Assembly (NCBI GenBank): GCA_024280895.1
Contig: JAJRPI010000056.1
Coordinates: 103,655-167,654 of the forward strand
Length of the DNA: 64,000 bases
Direction of reading: 5' to 3'
Origin: Alphaproteobacteria bacterium
GTDB lineage: Bacteria; Pseudomonadota; Alphaproteobacteria; Rhizobiales; JAKIUO01
Under the pieces are notes generated by a model. The model saw only the letters and a list, made by a program, of their open reading frames with translations. It had not been told where the DNA came from and searched no databases. Below, piece after piece: positions 9,467 to 61,680 of this stretch (the first letter of the stretch is position 1; every line of letters begins with the position of its first letter). Both the position numbers and the translations under genes were made by a program.

Positions 9467-10765
9467 TTATTTTAGATCTGTCAGGCGGGCATTGGCTTCG
9501 GTAATGCCAAGGCGCGCTGCCATATTATACCATTTGAGCGCATCGGTACGACTTCCTCTGACGCCATGCAGATTGACCCCTTTGAGATAGTTTGGGTCAA
9601 AGGTTTCTGCCAAGGCCATGGCCGAAATACCGCTGCCCAGGGTCGCGGCATATTGCAAAATCATACGTGCCGAGCTGATGTCGCGCTGTTTGAGATAGCT
9701 GCTGGCCCGTTTGAAAATCTGACTTTCCATATTGGGATCAATATTGGCAGCAGGAACAACCACGAGTTGTTCGAATTCACGAGATTTAGGGGGAAGCTTT
9801 GCTTTGGCTCGCAGTTTCGTGGTCGGCGATTTGCCGCCTGTTTTACGCAAGGCAAATAGGCCTTTTTGATTACGACCCGTTCTTTTTTCAAAAGCCTTGA
9901 TCTGGTCTTCCAGTTCTTGCGGCGTCATGAAAATTTCATTTGCCGATGGGGCTTTGAGAGAGCCTTTTTGGGGGGAAGCAGCCGTTGTCGAAATCCTTGA
10001 AGCAGTTGCCACTTGGGTATCATCAAGGCCGAGCATACCAGCCAGTGGATCAGACGCTTCAGGGGTGATAGATGTATTTTGCGCATATTGGGAGGCTGGT
10101 TTGGCGGACAGGCTGGCGACAACCCACGTATAAGTCTCGCCGGCTTTTGTTTGTGCTTTAGCCCAGTCGATACCTGTTGGCGACGCGAAGTGGGAAAAGG
10201 CCAGGGCGGAGACGAATAGCACTAAGACCGCACCAAGTGTTCCAGAAATATACACCCCCCATCTGGTTGGGCCGATGGGAAGGTCGGGAGATACGGGGAT
10301 GCCTGGTCTTGAACGGGGAATGTGCATGGCAGTCTCTGTGGGATAAGTTGCAAAGGGGGCCCCTTGTGAGGGATGGGCATGGGGGGGGTAGGCTTGGTCG
10401 AGCGGATCGATGGTCGACAAGAGTTCTCGCAGCCCATTTGTCGTAGAGCGATATTCTGGCAGAAAATCAACGGAGCCAGCAGGCATGTCATTTTGCGCAG
10501 AACCAGATGCTTTGTCCAGAGTTTGTTCATCAGCCAAACTCTTATGGCGCTTATTGCTGCTGGGCGACACAGATTGTTTTGTGGCCTCGGCTTTCTCGTG
10601 AGAGGAGCTGGCTTTAGAAGTGGTCTTTGCTGCCTCGATTGCTGGCAATATAATCATATCATGTTTCTGCTGGGTCGATTTGGATTTGCGCCGACGGGAC
10701 TTGCTTTGACGGCGTTTCCCGCTCGTGGAATCTGCGGGATCGGATGTGCCGATTTTCTTTGCCAT
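9467..10765 (-). CDS. Single-pass membrane protein with C-terminal Sel1/TPR-like repeats
   Basis: 432-aa ORF with a basic low-complexity N-terminus and one TM segment (WGVYISGTLGAVLVLFVSALAF). The C-terminus has a Sel1-like ALKWYNMAARLGITEANARL. Confidence 0.6.
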   Translation of the reverse strand: MAKKIGTSDPADSTSGKRRQSKSRRRKSKSTQQKHDMIILPAIEAAKTTSKASSSHEKAEATKQSVSPSSNKRHKSLADEQTLDKASGSAQNDMPAGSVDFLPEYRSTTNGLRELLSTIDPLDQAYPPHAHPSQGAPFATYPTETAMHIPRSRPGIPVSPDLPIGPTRWGVYISGTLGAVLVLFVSALAFSHFASPTGIDWAKAQTKAGETYTWVVASLSAKPASQYAQNTSITPEASDPLAGMLGLDDTQVATASRISTTAASPQKGSLKAPSANEIFMTPQELEDQIKAFEKRTGRNQKGLFALRKTGGKSPTTKLRAKAKLPPKSREFEQLVVVPAANIDPNMESQIFKRASSYLKQRDISSARMILQYAATLGSGISAMALAETFDPNYLKGVNLHGVRGSRTDALKWYNMAARLGITEANARLTDLK

Positions 10766-11071
10766 CTAGTCATTCCTCACACGTGCTATTTCAAGCAGCG
10801 CATATACTCTTTACACGTTACAACTTTCAAAAACGAATCGCAAAAACAAATTTTCCAGTTTCGTGATTGATCTACAGGTCAAATTCACCCATATCGATAC
10901 ATATGGCACAGATCTCTAGTGTTTCTTGCCATTACAAATACTGTAGGTGCAAATATAGTGCCATAGAATGATATATCGGAGATAAGTTCTTTACCATCAT
11001 ATATCGGCCTGATTTATTTGGCAAATAACTAATCCGCGTTATTCTCAAAATTGGTTACTAAAAAGGACTTT

Positions 11072-12820
11072 ATGATGCAATTTCGCTTTTTCTCTCTGGT
11101 TTTCACGCTTTTACTTCCGATCACGTATAGTTCTGCACAGGCTGGAGAGATTCTGATCAAATCGGCGGTGACAAATGTCATCGTTTTTCCATCCGGTGCG
11201 CAAATTGTCCGCACCGCAAAAATTGATCTGCCAGCTGGAGATCAGACCATTGTGCTGCAAGATTTGCCCGAGAGGCTGATCCCCAGCTCGCTGCGGGTTG
11301 AGGGAGCGGGCGGCAAAAGCTTTGAGATCGGATCGGTCGATAGCAAACGCATCTATGTCAATGTGAAAGACGTCAAGGGCGTGCTTGATAAAAGCGAGCG
11401 CAAAGAGTTAGAAGATCGGATTGAGGGCCTGGGCGATGATATGACGCTTTTGACGTCTCGTATCAGTGCCGCGCAAACACAGCGCCGCTTGATGGAGCGC
11501 CTGACCGATTTGCCAGCACAATCGCCGGGCCGTCCGTTTGACAAGCAAGGCGGCGGAGCCGGGGCCGGTTTGTTCTCCGTTGAGAACTGGGGCAATATTT
11601 TTGATCTGATTGGCACGCGATTGGCGGTGGCCGATGATCTTATCCTCAAATATAGCAAGCAGAAACGGGAAAAAGCCAAGAATATTGCCAAGCTGAAGAA
11701 GCGACTAAGCGAACAGCCTCCCAAGAAAGAGCGTCAGATGGAGGTGCGGGTGGCCGTTCATGCCGGGGCGCAGATGTCGGGTGTCCTGAAAATAAAATAT
11801 CAGGTGCGTGAGGCCTCATGGCGTCCCTTTTATGATGCGAGACTGGCAACGGGCAAAAAGGGTGTCAAGCCGACACTCGCGCTGTTGAGACGTGCTGGCA
11901 TTCGCCAGTGGACGGGAGAGGACTGGAGTAATGTCAAGCTTTCCCTGTCAACGACCACACCGCAAAAAGGAGCGCAGGCACCGAACTTGCGTCCAAAGCG
12001 GCTTGATCTGGTGACTAATTATCCTGCTGCTGCCAAACCAATGGCAGGTTTTATGGCGGACAAGGTGCGGGGCATGGCAGCCAGTGGAATGAGGTCCGAA
12101 GACATGATGGAGGCGGCACCAGCTCCAGCTCTTCGTCTAGAACAGAAAAAGAAGCGCTATGTGGCTCGCCAAAGACGTGCCAGTGTCCGTCAATACGCGT
12201 TCCAGGCGGTGTTTGATATTCCGGGTCAAATTAGCATTTTGTCTACGGGAGACGAGAAAAAAGTGGCTATCAGCAGCGACAAGATAGATCCCGGTTTGAT
12301 CATCAAGACCGTTCCCAAAATCAACACTACCGCGTTTCTTTATGCCAAATTCACTCATGACAAGAAGGCGACCCCGCTATTGCCGGGATCTGTGGCTCTT
12401 TATAGAGACGGCACCTTTACGGGTAATAGTCATTTGCCATTGGTCAATGCCGGTGATGAGTATGAATTGGGGTTTGGCGCGGATGATGCGGTCAAGGTGG
12501 TGCGATCTGAAGTTAAGCGCACCAAGGGGCAGGCAGGTGTTTTCACCAGCTCCAAGACCGATGAACAGCGTTATATTGTGAAGATTACCAATTTACATCA
12601 GAGCGCAATTGATGTGGAAGTGATCGATCAAATTCCATTTTCTGTGAATGAAAAAATCGTTGTACGTCTGCTGCCTAGCAGTACAAAGCCCAGCCGTCAG
12701 AATATCAAAGACAAGCGCGGCATTCTTGCATGGGACTTCAAACTGGAGCAAGGGCGCGAAAAGCTGATTAATCTCGATTATACGATCACCTGGCCAGCGG
12801 ATCGAACGCTATCGCGTTAG
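11072..12820 (+). CDS. DUF4139/DUF4140-type (MuiA-like) exported protein
   Basis: The ORF is 11051-12820. ATG at 11072 follows AAGGA and gives the signal peptide MMQFRFFSLVFTLLLPITYSSAQA. It has a central coiled-coil and WRPFYDARL. It is a paralog of the 1-1080 fragment. Confidence 0.8.
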   Translation: MMQFRFFSLVFTLLLPITYSSAQAGEILIKSAVTNVIVFPSGAQIVRTAKIDLPAGDQTIVLQDLPERLIPSSLRVEGAGGKSFEIGSVDSKRIYVNVKDVKGVLDKSERKELEDRIEGLGDDMTLLTSRISAAQTQRRLMERLTDLPAQSPGRPFDKQGGGAGAGLFSVENWGNIFDLIGTRLAVADDLILKYSKQKREKAKNIAKLKKRLSEQPPKKERQMEVRVAVHAGAQMSGVLKIKYQVREASWRPFYDARLATGKKGVKPTLALLRRAGIRQWTGEDWSNVKLSLSTTTPQKGAQAPNLRPKRLDLVTNYPAAAKPMAGFMADKVRGMAASGMRSEDMMEAAPAPALRLEQKKKRYVARQRRASVRQYAFQAVFDIPGQISILSTGDEKKVAISSDKIDPGLIIKTVPKINTTAFLYAKFTHDKKATPLLPGSVALYRDGTFTGNSHLPLVNAGDEYELGFGADDAVKVVRSEVKRTKGQAGVFTSSKTDEQRYIVKITNLHQSAIDVEVIDQIPFSVNEKIVVRLLPSSTKPSRQNIKDKRGILAWDFKLEQGREKLINLDYTITWPADRTLSR

Positions 12821-13478
12821 CTTTCACTCACGGCTATTCCGGCTTCCGCCGGGCCTCCGTTAGGGCGGGCTACTGCCCGACGGCCAGTCGGCCTTGCCGA
12901 TGAGTACATCGGTTTTTTCCACCTATAAAAAATCGCGTCTAAATAGTAAAGAATTCCGACCAACGGGAGGCAAGCGTGACTACGCGCCGCGCCGTAGCGC
13001 GCCCATAGCCCTCAAACAGCGGAGCGGTAGGGTGACAAATAAGCAGGCCGCGCGCAGCGCGCATAGCTGTGAGTGAGATTAAATCACCGATGTATTCCAT
13101 CGGCAAGGCCGACTGGCCGCCGCGCCATAGCGCGCCCTAACGGAGGCCGCGCGCAGCGCGAATAGCGGCGAGTGAGATTATAAACCACCGATGTATTCAT
13201 CGGCAAGGCCGACTGGCCGCCGCGCCATAGCGCGCCCTAACGGAGGCCGCGCGCAGCGCGCATAGCTGTGAGTGAGATTAAATCACCGATGTATTCCATC
13301 GGCAAGGCCGACTGGCCGCCGCGCCGTAGCGCGCCCTAACGGAGGCCGCGCGCAGCGCGAATAGCGGCGAGTGAGATTATAAACCACCGATGTATTCATC
13401 GGCAAGGCCGACTGGCCGCCGCGCCGTAGCGCGCCCTAACGGAGGCCGCGCGCGGCGCGAATAGCCGTGAGTGAGATT
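12821..13478. repeat. Array of ~100-bp GC-rich multi-hairpin repeats (REP/BIME/RIME-like)
   Basis: There is one inverted copy at 12821-12912 and a degenerate partial unit at about 12975-13080. Four direct tandem units follow at 13081-13179, 13180-13279, 13280-13378 and 13379-13478, with gagtgagatt recurring at 13071, 13170, 13270, 13369 and 13469. Each unit holds several short GC stems. There are no unique spacers. Confidence 0.9.
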
Positions 13479-13935
13479 AAGCCGCTGCAGCTGGCTCTGT
13501 CAGGATGGCATGCAAGCCGTGGCGGTCTTTGGTGACGCGCAGTTTTTCGATGGCAGAGGGCTCACGCAACAGGCGCGAGATACGGGCCAGGGCCTTTAAA
13601 TGGTCGGCACCGGCGCTTTCAGGTGCCAGCAGCACAAAGATCAGATCAACGGGCTGGTCGTCAATGGCGTCAAAATCAATGGGATCATCCAGTCTTGCGA
13701 ACAGGCCAATGATCTGCTTGAGACCGGAAATTTTGCCATGTGGTATGGCAATGCCGTGACCAACACCGGTGGAGCCGAGGCGTTCACGCTGCAACAAGGT
13801 ATCAAATACATCACGTTGATCAAGGCCGGTCAATTCTTCGGCCTGACTGGAAAGTTCCTGCAGGACCTGTTTTTTACTGCTGGCCTTAAGGAGCGGAAGT
13901 ATACCGTCTCTTGATATGAGATTGCCAAGATCCAT
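13477..13935 (-). CDS. ptsN: Nitrogen-related PTS EIIA (EIIA-Ntr)
   Basis: 152-aa ORF with the phospho-His motif GHGIAIPHGK, in the conserved position downstream of hpf. Confidence 0.9.
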   Translation of the reverse strand: MDLGNLISRDGILPLLKASSKKQVLQELSSQAEELTGLDQRDVFDTLLQRERLGSTGVGHGIAIPHGKISGLKQIIGLFARLDDPIDFDAIDDQPVDLIFVLLAPESAGADHLKALARISRLLREPSAIEKLRVTKDRHGLHAILTEPAAAA

Positions 13936-52149: not shown

Positions 52150-52793
52150 ACTGGGTCGAAAGTAAAAACCCGGTCGTACATGCGGGATTGTTAGGGGGCA
52201 TTGCGCTGGTTGCTGGCGTCTTTTTGATCCTTGGCAATATGGCAACAAAGCAATCGATCAAAGATCGCCAGCACGAAGATCTGGTGCGCTCGCTAGAGAT
52301 TGTCATTCCCGATCAACTGCATGATAATGATTTGAGCGCAAAGGTCATGCACGTGCAAGATGCGGCAGGTCAATCGCATGAAGTTTATCGAGCACGCAAG
52401 GCGGGCAAGATAACAGCGATTGCTTTTGCGCGGGCCATTCATGGCTATATGTCCATTCATTTGATCATGGGCATTGATGCGAGCGGTGAGATATTGGGCG
52501 TGCGGGTGTTGTCCCATGAAGAAACGCCGGGGCTTGGAGACAAGATTGAGGTCGCCAAAACTGACTGGATCACCAGTTTTGATGGCCTCTCGCTGCAAAA
52601 TACACCGCGCGGCCAATGGGGCGTAAAAAAGGATGGCGGCATGTTCGACCAGTTTTCGGGTGCCACCATCACCCCGCGCGCCGTTGTCAAAGCGGTACGC
52701 GAGGGATTGGAGTTTTTCAAATTCAAGAGGGCTGAACTTTTGTCGAGCGACAATCGAGCAATCGATAAAGATGCGAGAGGGGCGGGCTCATGA
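52146..52793 (+). CDS. rnfG: Rnf complex subunit G (FMN-binding)
   Basis: 215-aa ORF with an ATGA overlap. It has the FMN attachment region [10 protein letters not shown] and ETPGLGDKI. Confidence 0.92.
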
Positions 52794-53500
52794 GCACGGA
52801 TGCACCAGACTATCGCACGATCATCGCGGATGGCCTGTGGACGCGCAATGTTGTGCTGGCGCAATTGCTGGCGCTTTGCCCCTTGATGGCGGTGACAGCG
52901 ACCGCCACCAATGGTCTTGGCATGGGTATGGCAACGACCTTTGTGCTGGTGGCATCGGGCTTTTCGGTTTCCTTGTGGCGCGGGTTTATCACCCCCGAAA
53001 TCCGTATTCCGGTATTTGTGTTGATCATCGCCTCGCAAGTCACACTGGTTGAAATGGGCATGAACGCGTGGCTGCATGAGCTCTACAAGGTGCTCGGCCT
53101 GTTCATTCCGCTGATTGTTACTAATTGCGCCATTTTAGGGCGCGCCGAGGCATTTGCATCTCGTAATGATGTCATCCCCTCGATGGTGGACGGGTTTTTC
53201 ATGGGGGTTGGGTTTACCGCCGTATTAGTGGTTATTGGCGGCATCCGTGAAGTGCTCGGTTCGGGCACCCTGTTTTTCAACGCGTCCCTATTGTTGGGGG
53301 AGCATTTTTCATTTTTGGAAACGGTGGTGTTTGGCGGCGATTATAAAGGGTTCTTGCTGCTCATTTTGCCGCCCGGCGGATTTATCGTGCTGGGTTTTTT
53401 GATCGCTTTCAAAAATGTCATTGATGCGGCCCGCGTAAAACGCGCCACCGCGCAGGCGTTGGATCATGGGGCGGAGCCAACGCAGGAGCGGGCGGCTTAG
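52790..53500 (+). CDS. rnfE: Rnf complex subunit E
   Basis: 236-aa polytopic ORF with an ATGA overlap, containing [21 protein letters not shown]. Confidence 0.92.
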
Positions 53501-53781
53501 TGGCCAAGATAATTGAAATTTCGGTGGCTTGTGCCCATCCCAATGATGGTTTTTGGCGGACCATGTCGGTGAGCGAGGGCACAACCGCCCTTCAGGCGAT
53601 CCAAAATTCGGGAGTGCTGGAGCATTTCAAGGAGCTTGAAACTGATACGCTTAGTATCGGTATTTATGCCGTGCCAGCCAAGCTCGATACCATATTGGTG
53701 CAAGGGGATCGGGTAGAAATTTATCGCGAGCTTCTGGTTGATCCAAAAACCGTACCCAGAAAGGCCAAAAAGAAAAAATGA
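53500..53781 (+). CDS. rnfH: RnfH-family ubiquitin-fold protein
   Basis: 93-aa ORF whose GTG overlaps the rnfE stop (TAGTG). It contains GDRVEIYRELLVDPK, typical of RnfH/UPF0125. Confidence 0.85.
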   Translation: MAKIIEISVACAHPNDGFWRTMSVSEGTTALQAIQNSGVLEHFKELETDTLSIGIYAVPAKLDTILVQGDRVEIYRELLVDPKTVPRKAKKKK

Positions 53782-53844
53782 GTTCGTTCACTTTGATTGA
53801 CTCATCCCTCAAGCTTTTCTATTAAGAGCCCATGCCAGTTGATC

Positions 53845-54180
53845 CCTGCGGGAGAGATCATTGTGTCTGACTTAAGAGACGATATGGCGCCGAAGGAGCA
53901 ACCGCCCCAAAAAAACGACGGGAAACTCTCAGGCAAACGGACCGCAGGAAGATGGCACTCTGGAAAGCAGGTGCAGGGTTGACCCCGCACCTCACCGAAG
54001 GGGTAAGTTGGTTTTCTGGCGGGTAGTCGCTGGATGCGTGTTTTATGCGGAGAACCGGATCGTAGATCCGGCAAGGGCAAGCGCCCGCCGCGTGTTGCGC
54101 GCCCTCGCGGAGGCCCGCCGTCAGGCGGAGTGGCCGTGAGCGATATAAACCAATCAAATCTCTCAGGTTCCGTGACAGAG
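53845..54180 (+). promoter_or_regulatory. Tandem glycine riboswitch (aptamer 1 at 53845-53948; aptamer 2 at 53958-54180 with a large internal insertion)
   Basis: In aptamer 1, P1 is cctgcgg/ccgcagg and the conserved elements GGGAGAG, GCGCCGAAGGAGCAA and CTCTCAGGCAAACGGAC are present. In aptamer 2, P1 is ctctg/cagag, with TCACCGAAGGGGTAA and CTCTCAGGTTCCGTGACAGAG about 155 nt apart. It lies directly upstream of gcvT. Confidence 0.85.
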
Positions 54181-54254
54181 GGGGTGTGTGTCTTTGCCAT
54201 AGTCTGGCATAGATGGCGCTCGCATTGAGGTCTCGGATTGAGGGAGAATGGTAC

Positions 54255-55421
54255 ATGTCGGATCAACAGGGGGATAGCCCCCTAAAGCGCACGCCGCTTT
54301 ATGATTTTCACAATAAACTGAATGCCAAAATGGTGCCGTTTGCGGGCTATGAAATGCCGGTGCTGTATCCGCTTGGGGTGCTCAAGGAACATCTGCATGT
54401 ACGCGAAAAAGCTGGATTGTTTGACGTCTCTCATATGGGACAGGCTTTCTTGATCCCCGCCGATGGCGAGTTTAAAACCGCTGCGCATGCTCTGGAAACA
54501 CTGGCACCGGGTAATTTTGCTATTTTAAAGCCTGGACGCCAACGCTACTCGCAGCTGCTCAATGATGAGGGTGGCGTGCTGGATGATTTGATGGTGACGC
54601 GTCTTGGTATGGAGGGGCATGAGCACTGGGTCTATGTGGTGGTCAACGCCGCTTGCAAGACCCGTGATTTCGCGCTCATTGAAAAAAGCATGCCCGATAA
54701 TGTCGAAATGAAAATTCTCGATGATATGGCGCTTATCGCCCTGCAGGGACCAAAGGCCGTTGATGTGCTGGCAGGGTTTGCCCCACAAGTCGCCGATATG
54801 GCGTTTATGAGTTCTCTTGATCTACCCGTCAGCGTCGATGAGCAAGAGATGTGGATGCATGTTTCGCGCTCTGGATATACGGGCGAAGATGGCTATGAAT
54901 TGGCTATTAAATCCAAAGATGTCGAAACATTCTGGCGTGCGCTTGAAGCTCACCCCGATGTGGAAGCGATTGGCCTTGGCGCTCGTGATAGCTTGCGTTT
55001 GGAAGCAGGGCTTTGCCTTTATGGTCACGATATTGACGAGACCACAACACCCATTGAAGCCAATCTCACCTGGTCCATTGGCAAGCGTCGCCGTGAAAAT
55101 GGTGGCTTTCCCGGTGCCGAAAAAATTCTTGCTCAACTAAAAGATGGCCCAGCCAGGAAACTGGTGGGTATCAAGCCAGAGGGACGCGCCCCGGCGCGTG
55201 AAGGAACCAAGGTGTTCAGCACAGATGGCGCGGAGATCGGCATTGTTACCAGTGGTGGTTATGGACCATCGGTGGGCGGTCCGGTGGCCATGGGCTATGT
55301 AAGCACCAAGCATAGCGAAGCGGGCACAGCACTGGAGCTTGAAGTGCGGGGCAAGCGCCTGCCAGCACTCGTTCAGCCCTTGCCATTTGTGGCGCATAAT
55401 TTTTATCGCAAAAAGAAATAA
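54255..55421 (+). CDS. gcvT: Glycine cleavage system aminomethyltransferase (T protein)
   Basis: The track ORF is 54213-55421. ATG at 54255 lies 8 nt after GAGGGAG. It contains TPLYDFH and DVSHMG. Confidence 0.95.
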   Translation: MSDQQGDSPLKRTPLYDFHNKLNAKMVPFAGYEMPVLYPLGVLKEHLHVREKAGLFDVSHMGQAFLIPADGEFKTAAHALETLAPGNFAILKPGRQRYSQLLNDEGGVLDDLMVTRLGMEGHEHWVYVVVNAACKTRDFALIEKSMPDNVEMKILDDMALIALQGPKAVDVLAGFAPQVADMAFMSSLDLPVSVDEQEMWMHVSRSGYTGEDGYELAIKSKDVETFWRALEAHPDVEAIGLGARDSLRLEAGLCLYGHDIDETTTPIEANLTWSIGKRRRENGGFPGAEKILAQLKDGPARKLVGIKPEGRAPAREGTKVFSTDGAEIGIVTSGGYGPSVGGPVAMGYVSTKHSEAGTALELEVRGKRLPALVQPLPFVAHNFYRKKK

Positions 55422-55460
55422 ATCTAACAAACACCAAAAGAAAAGATGAGGAGGCATTTG

Positions 55461-55838
55461 ATGTCGAAAACCTATTACACAAAAGAACACGAATGGATCA
55501 TGGTTGAGGACGGGGTGGGCACCATTGGCATTACGGATCATGCCCAGGAACAGCTCGGCGATATTGTGTTTGTTGAATTGCCAGAACCCGGCCTTGAAGT
55601 GGAGCAGGGTGATGAGGCCTGTGTGGTGGAAAGCGTCAAGGCGGCCAGTGAAGTCTATGCGCCCATTAGCGGTGAAGTGGTCGAGGCCAATGAAGCGCTT
55701 GGCGAGAATGCCGCTTTGGTCAATGAAAGTGCCGAAACTGATGCCTGGTTCATTAAAATCAAGCTGTCCAATGCGGATGAGCTGGAAGAGTTGATGGATA
55801 AAGCGGGTTACGAAGAATTCGTTGAAAGTGAGAGCTAA
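55461..55838 (+). CDS. gcvH: Glycine cleavage system H protein
   Basis: ATG at 55461 follows GAGGAGG and gives [13 protein letters not shown]. The lipoyl-lysine motif is [13 protein letters not shown]. Confidence 0.95.
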
Positions 55839-57184
55839 TGCGTTATCTGCCTTTGTCGCCAAATGATCGGCGCGAAATGCTGGCCAAAGTTGGTGTTGAC
55901 CATGTCGATGCCCTGTTTGCCGACGTGCCTAAAGACAAGCTATTGGACAAACTGCCTGATCTGCCAATGGCGGCCAGTGAAATCGAGGTAGAGCGCCAAT
56001 TGTCGCAAATGGCGGCGCGCAACTTGTCCGCCGGTCAGGCCAAAGGCTTTTTTGTCGGGGCGGGGGCGTACCGTCACCATGTGCCAGCAACCGTTGATCA
56101 TCTTATTCAGCGCTCCGAGTTTTTGACGGCTTATACGCCTTACCAGCCAGAAATTTCGCAAGGCACCTTGCAGGTCCTGTTCGAGTTTCAGACACAGATT
56201 TGCATGCTCACCGGTATGGATGTCGCGAACGCCTCCATGTATGATGGATCTACCGCGACTGCTGAAGCCGTGTTAATGGCGCGGCGCGTGACCCGGCGCA
56301 AAAAAGCAATTCTGTCGGGCGGCTTGCATCCGCAATATCGCGCGGTTGTGGAAAATATGGAGCGTTTTTCGGGGGGGGATCTGGTTCAGATGACCCCATC
56401 GATTGCTAAAGCCGAAGATTTGATCGATCAGATCGATGATGAAACCGCTTGTGTGGTGGTGCAATATCCAGACTTTTTTGGTCAGATCAGCGATTATAGC
56501 GCACTGGCAGAGGCGGCCCATGCTAAAAAAGCTTTGCTGATTATTGTGGTCACCGAAATTGTATCGCTGGGCGCGATCAAATCGCCAGGGTCAATGGGCG
56601 CCGATATTGTCGTGGCCGAGGGGCAGTCTTTGGGCTGTGGCCTTGATTTTGGCGGTCCCTATGTGGGTTTGTTTGCAACACGTCAAAAATATATCCGCCA
56701 GATGCCGGGGCGCCTTTGCGGAAAAACCGTCGATGTCGACGGGCAGCAAGGTTTCGTGCTGACCCTGTCGACCAGAGAGCAACATATCAGACGCGAAAAA
56801 GCCACAAGTAATATCTGCACAAATTCAGGTCTTATGGCGCTGGCTTTTTCCATTCATTTGACCTTGCTGGGTGAAAAAGGCTTGCGCCAACTGGCCATGA
56901 TCAATCATGCCAATGCCGTGCAGCTGGCCAATCAGCTCGGCAAGATAAAGGGCGTTGAAGTGCTCAATGACAGCTTCTTTAACGAGTTCACCATCCGCGT
57001 TCCTGGCAGCGCCCATGATCTTGTTGAGGCGCTGGCGGCCAAACAAATTCTCGCCGGTGTGCCCGTGTCGCGATTATTGCCGAAGGACAAGCTTGATGAT
57101 CTATTGCTCATCGCGGTTACCGAGATGAATAGTGGCGATCAGCTCACGACCCTTGCTGCGACCATCGAGGGAGAAATCAAATGA
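55838..57184 (+). CDS. gcvPA: Glycine dehydrogenase (decarboxylating) subunit 1
   Basis: 448-aa ORF with a TAATG overlap with gcvH, starting [15 protein letters not shown], with [11 protein letters not shown]. Confidence 0.95.
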
Positions 57185-58770
57185 GCATGAACAAACAAGG
57201 GCGCAAGACCGATATCAAACAGCCCACCAGCGATCGCATTGATGCAAAGACCTATTCGGGCAACAAGGCTTTGCAGATCGAAGAACCGATCCTGTTTGAT
57301 CTGGGCGATACGCAGACAACGGGCGTTGATTTTGCCGATGTTGCGCCGTTCGAAAATCGCCTCAACGGCATGGAGCGTGCCGAGGAATTTGGCCTGGCCG
57401 GTCTGTCAGAACCTGAAACCATGCGCCATTATGTGCGCCTGTCGCAAAAGAATTACAGCATTGATACCGGCATTTATCCGCTCGGATCTTGCACGATGAA
57501 ACATAATCCGCGTCTCAATGAAAAAATCGCCCGTTTGCCCGGCTTTATGGATATTCATCCGTTGCAGCCGCAATCAAGTGTACCTGGTGCCATTGATCTG
57601 ATGAGCGAGTTGGCGCATTGGCTGATGGAGTTGACGGGCATGAAGGCGATTGCCCTGTCGCCAAAGGCTGGCGCACATGGCGAACTTTGCGGCATGATGG
57701 CAATCAAGGCGGCCCATGAGGCCCGCGAAGCCCAAGAAGAGGGGGGGGCGACCAAAAATGTCGTGCTTGTGCCTGATAGCGCGCATGGTACGAACCCTGC
57801 AACGGCGGCGCTGATCGGCTATAAAATTCGCTCGGTACCAGCGCAAGAAGATGGCACGGTGACGGCCGCCTCGGTCAAAGAGGCGCTCGATGATGATGTC
57901 GCCGCCATCATGCTCACCAACCCTAATACGGGCGGCGTGTTCGAGCGCGAGATCGTTGAGATCGCCAAGCTGATCCATGAAGCTGGCGCCTATTTTTATT
58001 GCGACGGCGCCAATTTCACGGCTATTGCCGGCAAGGTGAAGCCGGGCGAACTTGGTGTCGATGCCATGCATTTCAACTTGCATAAAACCTTCTCAACGCC
58101 GCATGGCGGTGGGGGGCCAGGTTCCGGACCAGTGGTTTTGTCAAAGCGCCTTGCGCCCTTTGCGCCATTGCCTTTTCTTGTAAAAGACGGGGAGAGCACA
58201 AGGTTGGTGGAAAATGCCAGCGATCATGTCAGTGAGGCCAGCCCGTTTGGGCGCATGACCGCTTTTCACGGACAGTTTGGCATGTATACACGGGCCCTTA
58301 CCTATATGATGAGCCACGGCTCTGATGGTTTGAAACAGGCCTCTGAAGACGCAGTGCTCAATGCCAACTATCTGCGCGCTTCGCTGTCAGATTACATGTC
58401 GCTGGCGTTTGGTGAAGATCATATCTGCATGCACGAGGTGCTGTTCGATGATGCGTTTTTGAAAGACACAGGCGTCACCACACTGGATTTTGCCAAGGCG
58501 ATGATTGACGAGGGCTTCCACCCCATGACCGTCTATTTTCCGTTGATTGTGCATGGCGCGATGCTGGTTGAGCCAACGGAAAGTGAGAGTAAAGCCTCAT
58601 TGGATCAATTTATTGAGGTGATGATTGCTCTGGCTAAACGAGCCAAACAGGGCGACGCCGAGCCGTTTTTAAACGCCCCTCGCTTTACGCCAAGGCGCCG
58701 GCTGGACGAGACAGGAGCCGCTCGCAAACCGATTTTGCGCTGGTCATCTGAAGATGAGGTGAATATGTAA
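57181..58770 (+). CDS. gcvPB: Glycine dehydrogenase (decarboxylating) subunit 2
   Basis: 529-aa ORF with an ATGA overlap. The PLP-lysine region is [16 protein letters not shown]. Confidence 0.95.
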
Positions 58771-61593: not shown

Positions 61594-61680
61594 GCCCCTG
61601 TGGCGGAACTGGTAGACGCGACAGATTCAAAATCTGTTGTTCGTAAGGACGTGCCCGTTCGAGTCGGGCCAGGGGCACCA
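61594..61680 (+). tRNA. tRNA-Leu (anticodon CAA)
   Basis: It folds by hand. The acceptor is GCCCCTG/CAGGGGC and the anticodon stem ACAGA/TCTGT carries the loop TTCAAAA. It has a long variable arm, the T-arm GCCCG-TTCGAGT-CGGGC, discriminator A and an encoded CCA. Confidence 0.93.

Follow-up and report, generated by a model that had tools for sequence, protein, structure and literature searches.

The 64,000-nt stretch of alphaproteobacterial DNA analysed here (the window; assembly GCA_024280895.1, contig JAJRPI010000056.1, positions 103,655 to 167,654) holds a tandem glycine riboswitch whose second aptamer contains a nested copy of a dispersed intergenic repeat. The riboswitch lies on the plus strand between the end of the rnf operon (rnfE 52790–53500, rnfH 53500–53781) and the glycine-cleavage operon gcvT-gcvH-gcvPA-gcvPB (54255–58770), whose genes occupy plus-strand positions 54255–55421, 55446–55838, 55838–57184 and 57181–58770 and match the Pfam families GCV_T, GCV_H, GDC-P and GcvP2_C. 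A single nucleotide separates aptamer 1 (53839–53954) from aptamer 2 (53956–54182, including the insert), and the gcv genes follow directly downstream; this is the arrangement of a tandem riboswitch, as had been proposed in an earlier model-generated annotation of the bare letters (hereafter the sequence-only reading). The same arrangement is kept in the orthologous rnfH–gcvT leaders that we collected from 11 relatives (12 orthologs including the window), and the synteny of the gcv operon is kept in all of these relatives. Aptamer 1 is a full-length match to the glycine riboswitch model RF00504 (68.7 bits, compared to a gathering score of 32) and is 92–97% identical among orthologs.

Aptamer 2 was recovered at 28.0 bits (E 0.0014, model positions 7–88) by a local, permissive RF00504 search over 53780–54280 (501 nt), while Rfam at the gathering threshold detected aptamer 1 as the only glycine aptamer in the whole window. 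The alignment skips 144 nt, which fall in the terminal loop of P3b, the distal P3 hairpin; all core segments of aptamer 2 align to the model, and the shortfall in score coincides with this insertion. The search thus located a second aptamer exactly where the sequence-only reading had put it, with the insert at the tip of P3b. Specifically, the conserved segments TCACCGAAGGGGTAA (53992–54006), (T)CTCTCAGGT (from 54159/54160) and GACAGAG (54174–54180) fall within 1 nt of the positions claimed there, and helix P1 pairs CUCUG (53958–53962) with CAGAG (54176–54180). The span from GYAA to CTCTCAGG measures 153 nt in aptamer 2 compared to 24 nt in aptamer 1, in keeping with the earlier estimates of ~155 and ~25 nt. 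A motif search brought up 26 other tandem leaders from Alphaproteobacteria, in which aptamer 2 has 20–60 nt over this span; values of 153–155 nt occur only in the four insert-bearing loci. The core strands of aptamer 2 are identical across the 12 orthologs, and GUAAGU and UCAAAUC, its J3a/3b flanks, are near-invariant, with single substitutions in the orthologs L120, L121 and L123. The aptamer 2 of insert-bearing L002 reaches 31.1 bits; for L121 and L003, which lack the insert, the RF00504 scores are masked by the tandem model RF03166 (67.9 and 70.4 bits; gathering score 110). A practical consequence is that the insertion puts aptamer 2 below the Rfam threshold, so that an automatic call would return a singlet switch.

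Elements that connect the two aptamers in tandem glycine riboswitches are also recognizable. Torgerson et al. (2020, PMC7161355) define a polyC/polyG motif forming the P5 pseudoknot, between the aptamer 1 P3b loop and the polyG tract after aptamer 2, and describe a class with a leader-linker P0/kink-turn motif; their alpha and beta A-minor inter-aptamer contacts join P3 adenines to the neighbouring P1, and the gamma contact lies in J3a/3b. Here, the putative P5 partners are CCGCCCC in the aptamer 1 P3b loop (53902–53908), which is invariant, and GGGGG at or just after the aptamer 2 P1 (54180–54184), invariant in the 12 orthologs. A putative P0 helix could form between UGCCA (53833–53837), the 5′ strand, and UGGCA (53954–53958); its 5′ strand is invariant in orthologs, and the flanking GUUGAUCC and GGAAGAU resemble a kink-turn. 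As far as can be judged from their sequences, the inter-aptamer contact elements (P3/P1, J3a/3b and polyC/polyG) are all intact, and the tip of the aptamer 2 P3b, where the insert lies, has no assigned tertiary contact in the PMC7161355 scheme. Minus-strand open reading frames (ORFs) also run across the riboswitch (53802–54266, 154 aa; 53858–54256, 132 aa), and gene finders could call them. These are very probably spurious, because the riboswitch explains the region and the indels between alleles are not multiples of three.

The extra sequence in the apical loop of the aptamer 2 P3b amounts to ~145 nt, of which the right-hand ~100 nt (54052–54153) belongs to the repeat family. It is closed off by the P3b basal stem, in which GUUGGUUU (54007–54014) pairs with AAACCAAU (54147–54154); all 8 pairs are 100% paired in the four insert-bearing orthologs, with two wobble changes and one compensatory change. 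The sequence-only reading had described this helix as the insert's own. The stem is real, but on comparison of alleles it is ancestral P3b and not repeat-derived, because insert-less L119 carries the same TTGGTT/AACCAA stem and the stem of insert-bearing L118 resembles that of insert-less L124. Next to the basal stem, a left arm (54015–54051, plus strand) comprises hairpin A (54015–54022/54027–54034) and a strand (54036–54050) predicted to pair with 54088–54102. This arm of ~37 nt is conserved in the window, L001, L002 and L118, and searches for its origin with 54008–54054 (blastn-short and nhmmer, 0.9 Mb) matched only the orthologous inserts. The earlier claim of a ~105-nt repeat insertion therefore holds for 54052–54153 and does not extend to 54015–54051, which matches nothing else. 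The repeat copy itself (54052–54146, plus strand) stands in what we call the unit orientation, and its profile alignment extends to 54153, into the 3′ strand of P3b. It contains hairpins H1 (54055–54071), H2 (54075–54086), an H3 region (54088–54102) and H4 (54115–54128), with an outer stem between 54104–54110 and 54134–54140.

Membership of the insert in the repeat family is supported statistically. An nhmmer profile built from the window's repeat-array units only, searched against ~0.6 Mb, recovered the inserts of the window, L001 and L002 at E-values of 5e-4, 8e-6 and 4e-6, respectively; blastn of the insert against the window gave E 3e-7 and 4e-6, and a 19-mer core found 6 matches at ≤3 mismatches compared to 0.03 expected. 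The alignment spans the whole unit, conserving the linkers GGCAA, CGGAGG and (A)GCCGTGAG, and the four hairpins differ between copies by compensatory changes. The block-by-block likeness to the repeats at 12.8–13.5 kb noticed in the sequence-only reading is thus well beyond chance. The insert, described there as a diverged copy, is not especially diverged, given that its variants occur in other family members: a 27-mer of the insert is identical in L088, an unrelated metagenome contig, the gccgtgagcgatataaa variant recurs in L106, and the 3′ end of the insert matches copies in L106 and L112. By these sequence comparisons, the insert is a family member within the normal range of family variation. 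When the repeat cluster and the insert were scanned permissively against Rfam, no known RNA family emerged, the matches (mir-4876, sR44 and Entero_5_CRE) being noise.

The window holds 7 copies of the repeat at 2 loci, the second being a cluster between the convergent genes for a DUF4139/DUF4140 protein (11051–12820, plus strand) and a PTS EIIA-2 protein (13477–13935, minus strand). The cluster begins with an inverted copy (12818–12919, minus strand; nhmmer E 4e-25) that starts from the TAG stop of the DUF4139/DUF4140 gene and, in the sense of that mRNA, ends as a hairpin followed by TTTTTT, with a terminator-like site at 12896–12913. A degenerate plus-strand copy with an internal insertion follows (12948–13085; nhmmer E 9e-10 and 7e-16), and then four head-to-tail plus-strand units of ~100 nt (13081–13483; Tandem Repeats Finder (TRF) period 100, 4.4 copies, 92% matches; nhmmer E ~1e-25 to 1e-27), which carry four terminator-like sites on the minus strand. 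The GATTAA of the last unit supplies the TAA stop (13477–13479) of the PTS EIIA-2 gene. In the sense of the reverse-complemented unit, the element ends in the H1 hairpin and then a T-run; a terminator scan of 12600–13700 found 5 sites, all in this sense, where 1.1 would be expected by chance. Minus-strand sigma-70-like hexamers also occur in the units (13376–13405 and 13177–13206; TTGCCG, 18 nt, TATAAT; 10/12 matches), overlapping the terminator-like hairpins; these may be chance matches, or the elements may carry outward promoters. The locus at 2740–3083 of L111, with a 593-aa ORF, an inverted copy and then direct copies, is an apparent ortholog of the window's 12.8-kb locus. Its unit content differs from that of the window, including a duplicated TTAATCTCACTCGCGGCT end, and the array is therefore evolving quickly.

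Beyond the window, a metagenome scan with a 22-base two-block pattern returned 36 contigs, 7 of which contained real family copies after filtering with the profile; the rest were chance matches. Viral contigs gave no repeat-family matches. The metagenome copies are mostly clustered and of mixed orientation, occurring head-to-head as well as in tandem, with alternative H1 and H2 modules, and most show the same terminator-like feature. A further, truncated copy lacking H1 is present in L117 (17470–17546), L122 (20113–20193) and L123 (7665–7745), at a shared locus ~7 kb downstream of gcv near a gene for a VTT-domain protein, in genomes whose riboswitches are without the full insert; the corresponding place in the window holds no repeat copy. 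The 96–112-aa ORF called over this truncated copy has no Pfam match and is probably spurious. The family is therefore represented by multiple dispersed intergenic copies (in the window, in the 7 metagenome contigs and at the L117/L122/L123 locus), and its H1–H4 palindromes are kept through compensatory changes, in mosaic modules and in both orientations, as in mosaic repeats. Among the 7 clusters with an adjacent gene (the window, L111, L097, L087, L112, L106 and L092), the gene-proximal copy adjoins or overlaps the stop codon in reverse-complement orientation in 6; this abutment or overlap is seen in L097, L112, L087 and L106 as well as in the window. In L111, the gene-proximal copy is truncated and lacks the terminator hairpin. 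This positioning points to insertion preferentially at sites resembling TAA/TAG, or else to selection for prompt termination. Outside the riboswitch, 17 of 20 full-length copies fold more stably as the reverse complement of the unit.

The distribution of the insert among the orthologs indicates an old insertion. The long allele occurs in the window and in L001, L002 and L118 (95, 90 and 87% GcvT identity, respectively), that is, in four species-level lineages; junctions, orientation and left arm are the same in all four. The full insert is absent from the other 8 orthologs. L121 (94% GcvT identity), L117 and L123 (89–90%), L119, L120, L124 and L003 have short P3b hairpins of 19–32 nt, while L122 (92%) retains a remnant, TCGCGGAGGCCCGCCGAT-GGC, that agrees with the L001 insert in 21 out of 22 nt (shuffle p<0.001) and implies at least one deletion internal to the insert. 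The L122 sequence is a 5× long-read contig in which many genes are split (rnfB/C/D, gcvT and gcvPB), pointing to frameshift errors; the 110-nt deletion is too large for an error of this type, yet rests on a low-quality assembly. Local alignment of the short P3b hairpins of L121, L117 and L119 to the long allele, as possible deletion scars, was not significant (p 0.3–0.6). In a neighbour-joining tree from ~4 kb of the operon, insert-bearing L118 falls outside a clade that mixes both states, and short-allele L121 is sister to the pair of the window and L001 (bootstraps of 96 for the pair and 81 with L121 added). These sequences are most simply read as a single old insertion, after which the insert was lost, or the allele replaced, several times. 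The ortholog alignment thereby answers two questions raised by the sequence-only reading: the insert is not strain-specific, being shared by four lineages and lost or truncated in close relatives, and the long segment of the relatives is itself repeat-like, as the L001 and L002 inserts match the profile. Elsewhere in the leader, L124 has a P2 of ~50 nt in aptamer 2 (9815–9862) and L120 has ~15 extra nt in the P2 of aptamer 1; these expansions are independent and unlike the repeat family.

To gauge constraint on the insert, identities between the window and L001, L002 and L118 can be set side by side: 93, 94 and 82% for the repeat unit, 97, 94 and 92% for aptamer 1, 92, 74 and 66% for the expression platform, and 64, 52 and 47% for four-fold degenerate sites of gcvT. 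By this sequence measure, the insert is under purifying selection where it has been kept. The constraint follows the predicted structure, in that 17% of paired columns in the insert are variable compared to 52% of unpaired columns (Fisher p=1.3e-5), and 97.5% of the stem entries in the alignment pair, compared to ~38% in slid controls. It is also strand-specific. Polymorphic stem pairs on the sense strand comprise 11 exchanges between Watson–Crick and G·U pairs and 1 between Watson–Crick and A·C (p=0.006); when the whole procedure was repeated on the antisense strand, the pattern reversed (1 and 6, respectively). The consensus fold is likewise more stable in the sense (−70.1 kcal/mol) than in the antisense direction (−50.5 kcal/mol). 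Based on the contrast between paired and unpaired variation and the sense-strand G·U bias, these patterns of substitution indicate that the nested element is maintained as a sense-strand RNA structure, unlike family copies elsewhere.

Downstream of aptamer 2, an intact Shine–Dalgarno sequence, GAGGGAGA (54240–54247), precedes the gcvT start codon (54255–54257), and the terminator scan found no terminator-like site between aptamer 2 and this ATG. Hairpin A together with TGCGTGTTTT (54015–54044) had been flagged as terminator-like, and was rejected as a leader terminator because L001 and L118 do not conserve its T-run. Since no terminator precedes the start codon, we propose, with low confidence, a translational ON switch. 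The minimum free energy (MFE) fold pairs an aptamer 2 core strand, UCUCUCAGGUUCCG (54159–54172), with CGGAUUGAGGGA (54234–54245), covering the Shine–Dalgarno; as a ligand-free alternative structure, this modelled helix is suggestive only. The copy in the leader is opposite to the orientation found after genes, with its terminator-like module on the antisense strand. Only in this orientation would the leader be spared a terminator, which is plausibly why the orientation survived. A 13-nt direct repeat, CTCGCATTGAGGT / CTCGGATTGAGGG (54219–54243; TRF), lies upstream of and overlapping the gcvT Shine–Dalgarno, and may offer alternative pairing partners in the expression platform.

The explanation that we favour, at a probability of roughly 75%, is that the repeat is nested in the P3b of a working tandem switch and has been kept there as a folded, constrained and dispensable passenger. 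Under this explanation, one GC-rich unit of ~100 nt would have entered the apical loop of the aptamer 2 P3b in an ancestor within an uncultured marine alphaproteobacterial clade, with the left arm of ~37 nt arriving together with it. The insert is predicted to form a self-contained domain of several helices with the old P3b stem at its base; this would hold both P3 strands and the glycine pocket together, so that the sensor most likely still works. Selection has kept the domain folded as sense RNA in the window, L001, L002 and L118, autonomous folding being a possible reason for the constraint, yet the insert is dispensable, given the short alleles of other lineages and the deletion remnant in one of them. 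Of these points, the data show where the insert lies, that it belongs to the family, that the long alleles share ancestry, that L122 has lost most of it, and that it is under purifying selection with a sense-strand bias; retained glycine sensing, translational control, the tolerance of this orientation and autonomous folding as the source of the constraint are inferred. Retained glycine sensing is most likely by analogy to engineered RNAs: sensors with Spinach2 or Broccoli fused at P3b still respond to glycine (PMC12422784), and together with the self-folding closed domain and the lack of a contact at the P3b tip, these grafts lead us to expect intact sensing. The passenger explanation is preferred to an acquired role because close relatives do without the insert, family motifs are relaxed in it, and its loops drift.

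Several observations weigh against this explanation. Compensatory covariation among the four insert-bearing sequences is not significant, as 140 of 500 shuffles reach the observed value; the case for constraint therefore draws on the contrast in substitutions between stems and loops, with strand asymmetry as a control. The strong purifying selection might just as well reflect an acquired function instead of a tolerated passenger. With respect to history, L121 and L117/L123 have short alleles identical to each other at 16 of 18 positions, a poor fit to simple loss, the deep nodes of the neighbour-joining tree are weak (bootstraps of 51 and lower), and no terminal inverted repeat, target-site duplication or mobilising enzyme was found for the insertion. 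With respect to the switch, aptamer 2 scores below the RF00504 gathering score, and its J1/2 (53964–53969) reads GGAAAG compared to the consensus GGAGAG. Finally, the proposed expression platform has an MFE z-score of only −1.27 for the helix that covers the Shine–Dalgarno; the UUCC(R)U/A(Y)GGAA pairing is G-C, A-U or G-U in 6 orthologs and mismatched in 5, and RNAalifold on the 12 orthologs did not recover this helix.

The strongest competing account is that the terminator-type repeat has been domesticated as a peripheral aptamer domain, which binds a protein or RNA or alters folding kinetics, and thereby modulates affinity, cooperativity or kinetics of the glycine response or adds a second input. 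We consider this unlikely. The insert is under selection equal in strength to that on the aptamer cores and specific to the sense-strand structure, the unique left arm may have co-evolved to pair with the H3 region of the unit, and the insert lies between the two P3 strands, upstream of the strand that competes for the Shine–Dalgarno; in engineered sensors, P3b is energetically coupled to ligand binding (PMC12422784). However, close relatives that share the operon and have an identical aptamer core (L121, at 94% GcvT identity, L117, L122 and L123) manage without the insert, and motifs that are invariant in the family are relaxed in riboswitch copies (AATAGCC to AGTGGCC, AATGTCC or AATGGCC, and GGAGG to GGACG in L118). 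The 52% variability of unpaired positions, which vary freely, fits a folding requirement rather than a sequence-specific site. Were domestication nevertheless true, the leader would be a natural counterpart of the engineered P3b fusions, with repeats supplying riboswitch modules. In a further account, the long alleles arose by several independent insertions into a P3b hot spot. The operon tree does interleave long and short states, and hairpin loops could be favoured targets for such elements; yet the long alleles share junctions, orientation and a left arm found nowhere else, and L122 carries the internal-deletion remnant, leaving independent insertions highly improbable.

Two other accounts question what the aptamer or the insert is. 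It is very unlikely that the insertion and GGAAAG have made aptamer 2 a structural ‘ghost’ partner, with the switch working through aptamer 1 only. In favour of this, aptamer 2 has a sub-threshold score and an off-consensus J1/2; singlet riboswitches paired with a ghost aptamer are known, and a single binding event is enough in Bacillus subtilis (PMC7161355; PMC13104608). Against this, every other core position fits the model and the core is invariant in the 12 orthologs, and the deficit in score is as expected from the penalty for a 144-nt insertion, L002 reaching 31.1 bits. GGAAAG is invariant in 12/12 orthologs, insert-bearing and insert-less alike, and is therefore a clade feature unrelated to the insertion. 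The remaining account holds that the long P3b is an ancestral variable hairpin whose likeness to the repeats is coincidental, or that the family descends from a riboswitch domain. No part of the leader varies more than P3b in this clade, and neither the left arm nor the closing stem is repeat-derived. However, the independent profile matches the insert at E 5e-4 to 4e-6, the insert has the four hairpins in the order of the family along with its invariant linkers, and the 27-mer recurs in the unrelated contig L088. In addition, family copies are found at many loci, stereotypically placed after stop codons, while the riboswitch holds a single unit in an atypical orientation, and the more distant orthologs L003, L120 and L124 have hairpins of 20–27 nt at this place. 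This account is already largely refuted, and we regard it as the least probable of all.

Compared to the tandem glycine riboswitches of RF00504 (the ‘ON-AMT’ class of PMC7161355), the locus shares two adjacent aptamers with consensus cores, a putative P0/kink-turn-like pairing, polyC/polyG tracts and glycine-cleavage genes downstream. It differs in the ~145 extra nt of the aptamer 2 P3b, the score below gathering and the J1/2 GGAAAG, and also in that no intrinsic terminator follows, control probably being translational. The repeats, by analogy, belong with mosaic intergenic repeats of the REP/BIME/RIME kind, here with a unidirectional terminator-like module. With the REP/BIME elements of enterobacteria and the long mosaic repeats of Alphaproteobacteria (RIME, Sm-repeats; cited in PMC2573895 and PMC1273637), the likeness extends to GC-rich hairpin modules with conserved linkers, mosaic composition and intergenic placement, single or clustered and in both orientations, mostly at gene 3′ ends and between convergent genes. 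A unit of ~100 nt with four hairpins is unlike REP (35–40 nt), and thus outside the size range of REP/BIME sensu stricto; the units here also overlap stop codons, and the likening to RIME and Bru-RS is by description. No RAYT or other mobilising gene was identified, RAYT association not having been searched for. A single unit carries no terminal inverted repeat and no target-site duplication flanks the riboswitch copy, at variance with a MITE, a miniature transposable element of the inverted-repeat type, although head-to-head pairs of repeats could mimic long terminal inverted repeats. The SPRITE elements of Streptococcus pneumoniae are also terminator-like dispersed repeats (reviewed in PMC3184786); they belong to another phylum and have another sequence, and the element here is larger and mosaic, and terminator-like by sequence only. 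The engineered Spinach2 and Broccoli sensors (PMC12422784) likewise carry a structured RNA of ~100 nt on the P3b stem of a glycine aptamer and retain the glycine response; they are synthetic, with designed transducer stems, whereas the graft here is natural, repeat-derived and evolutionarily maintained.

Neither this class of riboswitch nor this general type of repeat is new; the novelty lies in a repeat nested in a conserved aptamer and maintained as RNA. Our searches of open-access full text turned up no earlier description of a riboswitch aptamer harbouring a REP- or MITE-type element. The common picture of these aptamers is of compact, slowly evolving sensors in which peripheral helices vary only slightly in length, and here an insert has evolved as sense-strand RNA for long enough that synonymous sites are near-saturated, with the sensor core intact. 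Such nesting may be one route by which riboswitches gain new domains, and the natural series of insert, remnant and no insert offers a test of how much structure is tolerated at P3b and of its effect on ligand response. Elsewhere in the window, a tRNA gene with a long variable arm lies at 61594–61677, its anticodon CAA (tRNA-Leu) being read from the Rfam alignment (55.3 bits).

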